Below, piece after piece: positions 3,210 through 5,902 of a DNA stretch of 5,902 nt. Each line of letters starts with the position of its first letter. The stretch's first letter is position 1. This stretch comes from an uncultured archaeon (GTDB lineage Archaea; Asgardarchaeota; Thorarchaeia; Thorarchaeales; Thorarchaeaceae). Location of the stretch: the NCBI GenBank assembly GCA_964354495.1, contig CAYHAA010000043.1, forward strand, positions 1 through 5,902, in the 5' to 3' direction. Under the pieces are notes generated by a model that saw nothing but the letters and a program-made list of their open reading frames with translations, did not search any database and was not told the DNA's origin. The position numbers and the translations under genes were made by a program.

Positions 3210-3227
3210 ACCCTAGTACTTAATTCA
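3210..3227 (+). promoter_or_regulatory. Putative archaeal TATA-containing promoter element of the flaR-like gene (duplicated at 247-264)
   Basis: ACCCTAGTACTTAATTCA lies 23 nt before ATG 3251. The copy ACCCTAGTATTTAATTCA lies 22 nt before ATG 287. Motif and spacing are conserved although the spacer sequence is not, consistent with a leaderless or short-leader promoter (inference). Confidence 0.5.
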
Positions 3228-3250
3228 GTCTTTATCATCATGCCTTGATG

Positions 3251-3808
3251 ATGAAACGAGTGCTAATCCTTGGACCCAGCGGCTCAGGAAAGTCCACCCT
3301 GGGCGAAAGACTTGGTCGAATGCTCAGTGTTCCCATTATTCATTTGGACCAATGTTATTGGAAGCCGAATTGGGTATGCACTCCTGAAGATGAATGGCAG
3401 GCCAAGGTCAAGGATCTCATCGGTTCAGACGCGTGGGTCATGGATGGGAACTATACATCGACCCTCAGTCTTCGTGCCTCCGCTGCAGACACCATCATCT
3501 TCATTGATGTTCCTCGAAGGTTGTCGTACCTCCGCATATTCACCAGGTTTCTCAGATTTCGAGGCAGCACAAGACCGGACCTTACTGAAGACTGCCCAGA
3601 GAAGATAGACTTAGATTTCATCAGATGGATCTGGGACTACCCTCGCACCCGCAGACCGGCGATTCTGAGGTTTCTGGAGAAACAGAAGGCGACGAAGAAC
3701 GTGTTTGTCCTTCGGGGTCAACGGGAGACTGAAGCATTCCTTCGCACTCTTAGAAGTAGAGATGGCGGAGAGTTGTCGGGCCGTCACTCCCTTGAGAGTT
3801 CCAGCTGA
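3251..3808 (+). CDS. flaR: FlaR-like DNA topology modulation protein / adenylate-kinase-like P-loop protein
   Basis: Walker A motif ILGPSGSGKST, plus HLDQCYWKPNW, WVMDGNY, ADTIIFID and RPDLTEDCPEKIDLDFIRWIWDY, which are characteristic of the FlaR family. The start could be 3245, 3248 or 3251. The duplicate at 287 supports 3251. Confidence 0.85.
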   Translation: MKRVLILGPSGSGKSTLGERLGRMLSVPIIHLDQCYWKPNWVCTPEDEWQAKVKDLIGSDAWVMDGNYTSTLSLRASAADTIIFIDVPRRLSYLRIFTRFLRFRGSTRPDLTEDCPEKIDLDFIRWIWDYPRTRRPAILRFLEKQKATKNVFVLRGQRETEAFLRTLRSRDGGELSGRHSLESSS

Positions 3809-4550: not shown

Positions 4551-4615
4551 GAGATATTCAAGACTCCATGCCGGAATCGGGATGTAGCTCAACCTGGCAG
4601 AGCTATGGACTGTAG

Positions 4616-4645
4616 AAGGCTCGGCTTTGGTCGTTGCCTGGAGAG
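4616..4645 (+). other. tRNA intron 1 (canonical 37/38, 30 nt, relaxed BHB)
   Basis: The central helix CTGT(4610-13)/GGAG(4640-43) has one G:G mismatch. The 3-nt bulges are AGA and AGA. The outer helix is AGGC(4617-20)/GCCT(4636-39). Confidence 0.9.
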
Positions 4646-4667
4646 ATCCATTGGTTGCCGGTTCAAA

Positions 4668-4697
4668 GGCTTTCGCAATTCCTGCGATGACTGAATG
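4668..4697 (+). other. tRNA intron 2 (non-canonical T-loop position 59/60, 30 nt, BHB)
   Basis: The central helix TTCA(4662-65)/TGAA(4692-95) is perfect. The 3-nt bulges are AAG and TGT. The intron hairpin is TCGCA(4673-77)/TGCGA(4683-87). Confidence 0.9.
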
Positions 4698-4714
4698 TCC
4701 GGCCATCCCGACCA

Positions 4715-4727: not shown

Positions 4728-4774
4728 GTCATGACTTAACAGCAATGGACTGTAGCTGACCTGTTTCTTACATG

Positions 4775-4881
4775 TGAGTGAACATCAACTGTAAGCAACT
4801 TCTGTGTTCTGTCCTTACTCAACCTGATGTCGCCATCAATCTCAGGTGTCATCCTGAAACTAGTCGAGTCATTGTCCAATC
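4775..4881 (-). ncRNA. Putative TnpB omegaRNA scaffold / IS200-IS605 right end, copy 1
   Basis: 107 nt directly after the tnpB stop, colinear without indels with 5463-5569 (73/107 identical; 53/63 in the 3'-most part). It has covarying stems and a GCGA tetraloop hairpin, and ends ...GATGTTCACTCA. The true 5' boundary may extend into the CDS. Confidence 0.7.
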
Positions 4882-5365
4882 TCATTGGAAAGCAATCCCT
4901 CCAATAGACCTGACGTCTTTATCCTGCTTCACTACTGATTCATCATTAACAGCAGCAGAAATGGTTTCCACAGTCTTTCCACGCATGGTCATTCTCACCC
5001 TTCCTGATTTCTTCACTGAATCTAAGAAAATCCGTTTGGATGTGGTGAGAGGCTGCGGACTCTCTAGAACCTGATGATTGTTCAATAACAGAGAGTAAGG
5101 ACTTCCCTCGAGGTTTTCTCCCTTGGATTTTCGGTCGTGGACTCTTTGCCTTTTGGACTGCATCATTCCACTTACCTTGTCCTCTCATAGAGTGAAGCGA
5201 ATCTGTGAGCGTAATGAGTCTTCCAGCGATATTGATGGATTCATTTCAGTCTGCACTCGTCTTGCGCGCGCATGAGGGGCAGATGAAAAGATTCTGTCTA
5301 GGCCGGGCTCCCTTCGGCCTGCGTTTCCAACACGTGATAGAGGTCCATGATTCTGGAATGTCATA
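4882..5365 (-). pseudogene. tnpB: 5'-truncated IS200/IS605 TnpB pseudogene (Zn ribbon, RuvC-III and long C-terminal tail), copy 1
   Basis: My translation: IPESWTSITCWKRRPKGARPRQNLFICPSCARKTSAD*NESINIAGRLITLTDSLHSMRGQGKW.... This matches the TnpB C-terminal pattern TS..C..C...F.CP.C...AD.NA..NIA.R. Lesions: Zn-ligand Cys to Arg (5323-5321), TGA at 5248-5246 right after the RuvC-III Asp, and a frameshift at about 4972-4985 joining the track ORFs 4946..5188 and 4882..5166. Confidence 0.85.
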
Positions 5366-5462
5366 CTAGTTGGTTTCTTTGCGAGTCTAGTTGAGCATCT
5401 GCAACAATCGATTACGGATTGACTTTTCGGAGCGTATCTCTTGACCTATCTCCTGCTATTGT

Positions 5463-5569
5463 TGAGTGAACATCAACCGCAAGAAACCTCTGTGTTCTAC
5501 CATTTCTTGACCTGATGTCGCCATCGCACTTTGGCACCACCCAAAGGTCAGTCAAGACTTCATCCCCAG
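5463..5569 (-). ncRNA. Putative TnpB omegaRNA scaffold / IS200-IS605 right end, copy 2
   Basis: Homolog of 4775-4881 with compensatory changes. It ends ...GATGTTCACTCA(A), followed by an unrelated flank. Confidence 0.7.
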
Positions 5570-5902
5570 TCATCGAGACACTGTCCCTCCTAGGGCTCTG
5601 GTTTCTTTCTCCTGTATTTCTGGCGGAGTATCATTTCCGCAGACAGAGAGTCTTTCCACAGTTCTTTCCACGGCGGGGTCATTCTCACTCCTCTCGGGTT
5701 CGTCGCCGAAGTCGAGAAGGTCCGACTGGACAAAGTGATCAGCCGCGGACTCCCTGGAGTCTGATACGTGACTCCTCTTTTGGAGTAAGGACATCAGTTG
5801 TGGATTCTTCCCTGTGTTCACAGAGTCCACCCACTTTCCTCGTCCTCTCACAGAATGAAGTTATCCTGTGAGCGTGATAAGGCGTGCACCAATATTGATG
5901 GA
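5570..5902 (-). CDS. tnpB: 3' end of a second TnpB (begins beyond the right edge), with an in-frame TAA at 5863-5861
   Basis: SINIGARLITLTG*LHSVRGRGKWVDSV...SRESAADHFVQSDLLDF...GGTVSR* aligns with copy 1 (SINIAGRLITLTDSLHSMRGQGKW...SRESAASHHIQTDFLRF...GGIAFQ*), with mostly synonymous differences in conserved blocks. Whether the upstream catalytic core is intact cannot be seen in this window. Confidence 0.75.

Follow-up and report, generated by a model that had tools for sequence, protein, structure and literature searches.

A covarying RNA scaffold of some 450 nt that overlaps the end of tnpB in a Thorarchaeota-specific family, probably its omegaRNA

Introduction

Two related segments on the minus strand of a 5,902-nt stretch of Asgard archaeal DNA (the window, which is the whole 5.9-kb contig C43 of a 3.3-Mb assembly in 51 contigs) raise the question of whether they encode a structured RNA, to which class such an RNA would belong and where it begins and ends. 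A first-pass annotation had described window positions 4775 to 4881 as a compact 107-nt fold, located after a stop codon, that may define a lineage-specific omegaRNA family. Loci of Asgard archaea in which TnpB is associated with aCas1 are reportedly also named in work by Makarova et al. from 2020.

The guide RNA of such Asgard aCas1-TnpB elements was left open in PMC10691335 ("further work is required"), and the elements have been catalogued by computer but never reconstituted. In that account GTTCACTCA is reported downstream of Asgard aCas1-associated tnpB genes, the structure of the RNA is not described, and a hypervariable, spacer-like region is tentatively put upstream of GTTCACTCA.

Results

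Two related modules in the window

The window contains two modules that lie head-to-tail on its minus strand and share 73% identity. By comparison of the copies, copy 1 runs from about 5365 to 4757 and copy 2 from 5902, the contig end, to 5442, with the rest on contig C6 (C6:55-1). Window 5848-5902 and C6:1-55 are 55 identical bases, so that C43 and C6 join and copy 2 runs on. The host genome holds 10 module copies, namely the window pair and 8 more, and 4 of those 8 have intact ORFs of 550-590 aa. The reading frame of the family ends at stop codon 4884-4882 in copy 1 and 5572-5570 in copy 2 (columns 104-106 of alignment A3, below).

Both window ORFs are dead. That of copy 1 is 5'-truncated, with its cut at about TnpB residue 395, and out of frame through the loss of 2 nt near 4985; a remnant of the TnpB zinc finger and RuvC-III (WTSITCW ... 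FICPSC ... SINIAGR) is still found at 5240-5365 on the minus strand, frameshifted and truncated at about 5365. The upstream portion of copy 2 on C6 shows short open frames only. Any activity of the window copies, if they act at all, would need TnpB from intact paralogues elsewhere in the genome. At the other end of the window, a promoter-like region with the first codons of a P-loop kinase-like gene (3245-3808) is duplicated about 2.96 kb upstream (247-315 vs 3210-3279), and these duplicates flank a block with an unknown ORF and, on the minus strand, a transglutaminase-like gene (1292-2746).

A covarying three-way junction on the tnpB sense strand

The first-pass annotation had suggested collecting homologues, building a covariance model from a larger alignment and comparing the fold with Rfam. 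Homologue loci came from Thorarchaeota genomes (18) and from metagenomes (80), and they were analyzed as alignment A3, with 78 distinct modules, and as alignment A5, in which 100 modules were re-aligned to covariance model R1. Covariation was strong in both. The 33 pairs of A3 were 98.4% paired, 21 of them with double changes, and A5, a fitted alignment that follows the structure of its own model, was 90.9% paired overall with double changes at 27 of 37 pairs; none of 500 shuffles was as good in either case, in tests that ignore phylogeny and are inflated by kinship among the copies. When the partner strand was slid by 1-3 columns, pairing fell to roughly 39-54% in A3 and A5 (from 98% to about 40% for a one-column slide in A3). 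Many pairs show 3-6 standard pair types, e.g., 122/177, 123/176, and 72/142. The paired columns include 257 G.U cells vs 31 A.C cells, and this excess places the RNA on the tnpB sense strand and rules out a DNA hairpin or an antisense RNA.

Copy 1 retains 36 of the 39 pairs of the 3' domain. Copy 2, whose scaffold (5442-5902, minus strand) is cut by the contig end and continues at C6:55-1, keeps 37 and scores 117.7 bits with R1. Single-sequence minimum free energy folds of each copy give the consensus layout. The fold matches no Rfam family: a search of the whole window with the Rfam 15 covariance models at E <= 1 returned no match, and a local rerun gave a sub-threshold tRNA hit nearby and nothing else.

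Most of the stems proposed for the 107 nt held up in these alignments. Covariation and the single-sequence folds agree that stems c, a, and b meet in a genuine three-way junction (4817-4869, minus strand), with stem c at 4869-4862/4824-4817, hairpin a at 4860-4839, and the GNRA hairpin b at 4838-4825. Stem c lies at 5557-5550/5512-5505 in copy 2, the three changes listed for it between the copies are present, and it was 97.4% paired in the 78 homologues of A3 and 97.9% in the 100 modules of A5, with both-side changes at 7 of its 8 pairs. Hairpin a reads UUCAGG/CCUGAG (4858-4853/4846-4841) in copy 1 and CUUUGG/CCAAAG (5546-5541/5534-5529, within 5546-5529) in copy 2, just as claimed, with double changes from C-G to U-A and from A-U to U-A plus one from U.G to C-G. 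Its length and sequence vary by subfamily, yet the hairpin always forms; the six outer pairs were 88.1% paired in A5, and 5 of the 6 covary. Stem b, GAUG-GCGA-CAUC, is likewise present at 4837-4826 and 5525-5514 and was 92.0% paired in A5, where one of its pairs is GC in 58 modules and AU in 11.

The 3' domain is closed by a helix within the coding sequence

The annotation had also paired an invariant GAACA with UGUUC (pairing d) and regarded this as pseudoknot-like and next to the guide. The letters are present; however, pairing at these columns across 78 sequences was 73.4%, a value that shuffles also gave on average (73.4%), double changes were absent, and the innermost pairs, A192-U214 and C191-G215, form in 11 and 53 of the 78 sequences, respectively. 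We rejected pairing d, which arises solely when the 107 nt are folded out of context. The partners differ from those proposed: CACAG (4802-4806, inside invariant GAACACAG, 4809-4802) pairs with CUGUG at 4973-4969, about 165 nt upstream within the ORF tail, to form helix P1. By RNAalifold and our own counts on A3, P1 was 99.7% paired with 3 covarying pairs; one pair of the helix is G-C in 47 modules, G-U in 24, and A-U in 7 with zero broken, and single C-G and U-A variants are compensated. The copy 2 counterpart of P1 is 5661-5657/5494-5490.

Several further helices lie between the two strands of P1, all on the minus strand. Hairpin H1 (4921-4962), located in the ORF, combines 4962-4955/4927-4921 with an inner helix, 4953-4949/4938-4934, in which 5 of 5 pairs covary. 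The segment 4874-4914 holds the 5' strand of P2 (4914-4912, pairing with 4813-4811), helix P3 (4909-4904/4879-4874), and a small hairpin (4899-4895/4891-4887) just before stop codon 4884-4882; P3 encloses both the small hairpin and the stop codon. Two frequent U.U positions reduce P3 to 75% paired, yet 5 of its 6 pairs covary.

The scaffold extends about 325 nt into the tnpB ORF

Covarying pairs continue further upstream, and the entire covarying scaffold of copy 1, comprising the helices above and the upstream pairs, spans about 450 nt (4757-5208, minus strand) in a broken, 5'-truncated frame. The upstream set in the ORF tail consists of 53 predicted pairs that were 97.5% paired, 27 of them with double changes, and 0 of 300 shuffles equaled it; slid partners gave about 40%. 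A helix proposed by RNAalifold for columns 37-41/314-318 of the upstream alignment was dropped since it clashes with P1 and consists mostly of G.U pairs. Copy 1 holds 44 of the 53 upstream pairs, the worst count among 77 sequences, and with 9 of the 53 lost it is probably decaying.

These results change two parts of the earlier description. The 107 nt are not a compact unit; they make up the 3' quarter of a covarying fold that measures about 450 nt. The stretch does start right after stop codon 4884-4882, as noted; the RNA as a whole, however, extends upstream of the stop and overlaps the coding tail of tnpB by about 325 nt. The fold begins in the last third of the TnpB ORF, and ORFs of 550-590 aa terminate inside it.

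Terminal hairpin, guide junction, and a probable pseudoknot

The scaffold ends in a terminal hairpin (4763-4799, minus strand) with outer stem 4799-4790/4772-4763 and with invariant GUUCACUCA (4783-4775) in its loop region; the copy 2 hairpin is 5487-5448. In A5 the terminal stem was 89% paired with 5 of 5 pairs covarying, and the inner part of the hairpin is almost invariant. The GTTCACTCA motif, at window positions 4783-4775 and 5471-5463, is essentially invariant in 78 modules. UGUUC (near 4780) had been thought to adjoin the guide, but conservation extends 18-23 nt more, to AGGUCA at 4762-4757. Homology between copies runs past GUUCACUCA to AGGUCA or AGGUUA in about 80 modules, after which the flanks differ. 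Because homology ends after AGGUCA, we set the scaffold/guide junction at 4757/4756 in copy 1 and 5442/5441 in copy 2; a boundary at GATGTTCACTCA was rejected as contradicted by the module alignments. The predicted guides, on the minus strand and based on this boundary, are GCUACAGUCCAUUGCU... (4737-4756) for copy 1 and AGAGAUACGCUCCGAAAAGU (5422-5441) for copy 2.

A pseudoknot next to the guide is probable, although the likelier partners are UGACC and GGUCA and not GAACA and UGUUC. GGUCA (4757-4761), the final five bases of the scaffold, is kept as GGUCA or GGUUA in about 80 modules, and its proposed 5' partner UGACC lies about 230 nt upstream (4987-4991); both are on the minus strand, and the corresponding strands of copy 2 are 5446-5442 and 5681-5677. 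Of 380 cells, 93.9% were paired vs 92.2 +/- 0.3% in shuffles (0 of 1000 as high), and slid partners gave 8-69%. Double-change cells numbered 7 vs 1.0 +/- 0.9 in shuffles and come from few, partly related sequences; compensated variants include UGAUC with GAUCA and CGAUC with GGUCG. Since the pairing crosses helix 5058-5052/4984-4980, it would be a true pseudoknot, with support below that of the helices. Two other contacts were considered and discarded. Pairing of the UGAC right after the stop with terminal GUCA gave no signal above shuffles, and P3 uses that UGAC, while a loop-loop contact between AGUGA in the H1 loop and UCACU in the terminal loop showed, by eye, uncompensated G-to-A variants.

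The associated TnpB and its giant partner protein

The intact ORFs are TnpB-like by Pfam (Cas12f1-like_TNB, E 1e-12) and by comparison with a solved TnpB (9nzp_A, E 4e-12), and they reach 94 bits with the NCBIfam model guided_TnpB, whose cut-off is 100. Around AIGRLKNIR (TnpB residues ~340-348), 8 of 8 aligned TnpBs lack the canonical RuvC-II glutamate, and NIRLL aligns with NVEFL of the solved TnpB. D239 and D434 are kept, and E310 and E315, just upstream of AIGRLKNIR, are invariant. Judging from this conservation, E310/E315 may substitute for the missing glutamate, and rearranged RuvC sites of such a kind are reported in PMC10691335. A TnpB of this sequence, lacking the canonical RuvC-II glutamate, may also bind without cutting.

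Two units of the host genome, on contigs C27 and C6, share 7,084 nt at 74% identity that comprise tnpB, an intergenic region, and a divergent 1,700-aa ORF, ending at the stop codon of the latter. This 7.1-kb unit contains tnpB and the giant ORF alone, and we found no Y1 or serine-recombinase TnpA in it. The giant protein is encoded, at 1,700-1,900 aa and divergently from tnpB, at L027:286-5391, L028:334-6042, and L029:338-5440. It has more than 160 homologues, none of them functionally named; where a taxon is given, it is almost always Thorarchaeota, with a few from other Asgard archaea. Searches of the giant ORF against Pfam (also at E <= 10), NCBIfam, PADLOC, and PHROGs gave nothing usable and no transposase family, and those against the PDB (sequence and profile) and the ESM Atlas gave nothing usable either. 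The PF01867 (Cas1) profile had zero matches in the genome.

An AlphaFold model of giant-protein residues 900-1500 reached a pLDDT of 80.8. Foldseek found no match to the giant-protein model in the PDB; in a VIA-align comparison, Cas1/casposase chains were 10 of the top 13 at weak Z scores of 4.9-6.1, with Cas1 and casposase ranked first at 5.1-6.1, over model residues 104-283. A helical domain at about residues 1004-1182 of the giant protein thus resembles Cas1 weakly (Z 5-6), and by eye the protein also has PD-(D/E)xK-like (IDLVLF...ILEVKTK) and Walker A/B-like motifs. GTTCACTCA and this weak Cas1-like match make it probable that the element is a member of the aCas1-TnpB group described by Altae-Tran et al. 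2023 (PMC10691335).

The region upstream of tnpB has features of its own. In L001-L019, 30-140 nt upstream of the tnpB start, a covarying hairpin is followed by GAGTGAAC, which is the reverse complement of 3' GTTCACTC, and then by CTGACC-N4-6-GGTCAG. Past the latter, 13-19 nt with a TATA-like box repeat a sequence about 105 nt upstream; these are locus-specific and match within the locus. This upstream block may be a second, promoter-directed guide unit.

The family is confined to the host's lineage

Of 26 sampled genomes from the host's family, 21 contained the fold in a search with R1, at up to at least 19 copies per genome, and in about 120 other genomes of the phylum there was one weak hit and otherwise none. 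Together with the lack of an Rfam match, this bears out the proposal of a lineage-specific family. The proposed class is also upheld: the fold is that of a structured non-coding RNA encoded in the sense orientation of tnpB, where the gene ends.

Guide segments and tRNA genes

A tRNA-Tyr(GUA) gene with an encoded CCA and two introns, which follow the anticodon loop and interrupt the T loop, respectively, lies outside the RNA at 4578-4714 on the plus strand. The Rfam tRNA model gives it 16.4 bits, below threshold, and ARAGORN finds nothing in the window; after removal of the introns in silico, ARAGORN's commonest call is tRNA-Tyr(gta). The copy 1 flank at 4741-4756 repeats tRNA-Tyr positions 4601-4616, from the D-stem to the anticodon loop, with 14 of 15 bases in agreement. 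Copy 1 is therefore predicted to have a guide antisense to the anticodon arm of this gene, which lies 140 nt away; guide positions 1 and 13 are mismatched. For the copy 2 guide, a second match of at least 14 nt was sought in the genome and none was found.

Matches of this kind recur among the right-end flanks of L001-L109. tRNA genes of this genome are matched by 20 of 80 flanks vs 2 of 80 shuffled ones and 1-4 in ORF-internal controls, and the matches usually begin at flank position 1-2 and are 14-16 nt long. In 14 of 77 modules, copy 1 included, a second occurrence of the 16 nt that adjoin the scaffold lies no more than 600 nt downstream, vs 8 of 760 in a cross-locus control. In L042, L043, and L099 the second guide copy follows a right-end-like hexamer (AGGTTA, AGATTA, and TGGTAA). 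A fixed CAST-like insertion distance from guide to second copy was rejected, as the distances range from 21 to 190 nt, and no TAM could be derived from the module flanks.

The two-gene element is often located at tRNA genes. In the C27 unit (C27:7054-14335; L001 and L027; 7.1 kb), the scaffold end directly adjoins a complete tRNA-Gly(UCC) gene, and on the other side a 45-nt tRNA-Gly 3' fragment follows right after the stop of the giant ORF, an att-like direct repeat that we examined in the C27 copy alone. The C27 guide also matches the 3' end of tRNA-Gly(CCC) perfectly over 22 nt (C6:77916-77937). At L011:1875-1970 and L012:3312-3425, short tandem rows of a terminal 30-55-nt unit (GAACAYAG ... 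or GUUCACUCA ... AGGUYR) have flanks that all differ, and these rows resemble a repeat-spacer array.

Discussion

We consider the 107-nt fold to be the 3' domain of an omegaRNA whose TnpB family is specific to Thorarchaeota, with a probability of about 85%. In intact elements, this omegaRNA would presumably be part of the tnpB transcript, where it would form a branched scaffold of about 450 nt with several helices inside the codons for the ~110-residue C-terminal tail of TnpB. P1 (CUGUG/CACAG) would close the 3' domain and enclose H1, P2, P3, the small hairpin, and stems c, a, and b, with P3 and the small hairpin straddling the stop codon. The terminal hairpin bearing GUUCACUCA would follow 3' of P1, after which GGUCA would pair back to UGACC about 230 nt upstream, and the 16-20 nt after the scaffold, starting at 4756 (copy 1) or 5441 (copy 2), would serve as the guide. 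By analogy with ISDra2 TnpB, the protein would bind the scaffold and the guide would pair with DNA beside a short motif. We infer TnpB binding, processing, guide length, a target-adjacent motif, and nuclease activity in this way, in contrast to the strand, structure, and boundary of the RNA, its link to the TnpB gene, and its taxonomic range, which are established by the alignments and searches above.

The same hairpins could be read as DNA signals at the right end of the element, namely single-strand hairpins used by a transposase or integrase as at IS200/IS605 ends and unrelated to any RNA scaffold. The fold does stop exactly at the element boundary, the left-end region has the reverse complement GAGTGAAC and a ...CAGGTCA repeat, and the near-invariant inner terminal hairpin could be a protein or DNA site. 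We nevertheless regard this as improbable, because 257 G.U against 31 A.C cells would not be tolerable for a DNA hairpin or for the opposite strand, and because long-range covarying helices span up to 175 nt in a fold that covers 450 nt including coding sequence. Location within the ORF points in turn to a cis-acting element of the tnpB mRNA, with a role in stability, translation of the C-terminal tail, or 3'-end formation or processing and with no guide function; about 325 nt lie inside the ORF, and the small hairpin and P3 span the stop codon. Such an element would not be expected to persist in copies that lack the ORF, which keep 36-37 of 39 pairs and score 118-124 bits with R1 vs 96-149 for intact-ORF copies, nor as ORF-free free-standing modules (L025:3502-3669 and L074:3130-3291), and the segment adjoining the scaffold varies by copy, as a guide would. 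This makes a purely mRNA-based role slightly less credible still than DNA signals, although the 5' part of the ~450-nt fold could be an mRNA structure with another role.

Least credible of all is that no functional RNA exists and that codon constraints and the common descent of the repeat copies only mimic covariation. The copies are indeed related, and shuffle tests take no account of phylogeny. Kinship, however, would not be expected to give 3-6 standard pair types at many pairs, a drop in pairing from 98% to about 40% on a one-column slide, or a hairpin a that changes in length and sequence by subfamily and is always kept.

Beyond the omegaRNA itself, the tRNA-matching flanks (20/80), the recurring guides (14/77), and the tandem rows at L011 and L012 hint at a more speculative arrangement, which we think doubtful but worth stating. 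The last 33-55 nt of the scaffold (GUUCACUCA ... AGGUYA) might act as a proto-CRISPR repeat, the ORF-less modules of the window might be a two-guide array for a TnpB made elsewhere, with guide 1 directed to the tRNA-Tyr anticodon arm, and the aCas1-like partner might set or move tRNA-derived guides. If true, the element family would be an extant link from the omegaRNA of a transposon to a CRISPR array fed by Cas1, and it would also be a selfish system directed at tRNA genes.

For the omegaRNA, the analysis provides a structure backed by covariation, the strand, the ~450-nt 5' extent, the exact scaffold/guide junction, and a likely pseudoknot, and these are the data that expression constructs and guide design for a first biochemical test require. 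The position of the guide relative to GTTCACTCA is also corrected. The class of the RNA, an omegaRNA, is ordinary; its size is unusual, as is a protein tail of about 110 residues encoded by the sequence of RNA helices.

Like the ISDra2 omegaRNA (reRNA; PMC10097598), the RNA described here lies on the tnpB strand, overlaps the 3' end of the ORF, and forms a multi-stem scaffold up to the right end of the element, past which flanking DNA would supply the guide. The probable pseudoknot just 5' of the guide would also be like those of ISDra2 and Cas12 guide RNAs; bases -5 to -3 pair with -103 to -105 in ISDra2 (PMC10097598), and here -5 to -1 would pair with about -235 to -231. The ISDra2 scaffold, however, is 116 nt long compared to about 450 nt here, and the helices differ, with no sequence similarity. 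Unlike IS200/IS605 TnpB elements, the unit has no Y1 or serine TnpA and instead has a 1,700-aa partner, and its TnpB differs from IS200/IS605-type TnpBs such as that of ISDra2 in lacking the canonical RuvC-II glutamate and in having a tail of ~110 residues whose codons double as RNA helices.

The modules of the window, like stand-alone omegaRNAs and mini-elements of OMEGA systems, keep the fold without a working tnpB, and other loci have free-standing 3' modules. Unlike omegaRNA-only mini-elements, the window modules are decayed full elements, as seen from the zinc-finger/RuvC-III remnants, the frameshift, and the 44 of 53 pairs in copy 1. Compared by description, Cas1H-Asgard-1 and -2 (PMC10691335) share an Asgard (here Thorarchaeota) host, a TnpB with one large partner, flanking repeats (here the 45-nt tRNA-Gly repeat of the C27 unit), and GTTCACTCA downstream. 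The two accounts differ in where the variable segment lies: in our modules GTTCACTCA occupies the loop of the terminal hairpin, and sequence becomes variable 18-30 nt downstream of it.
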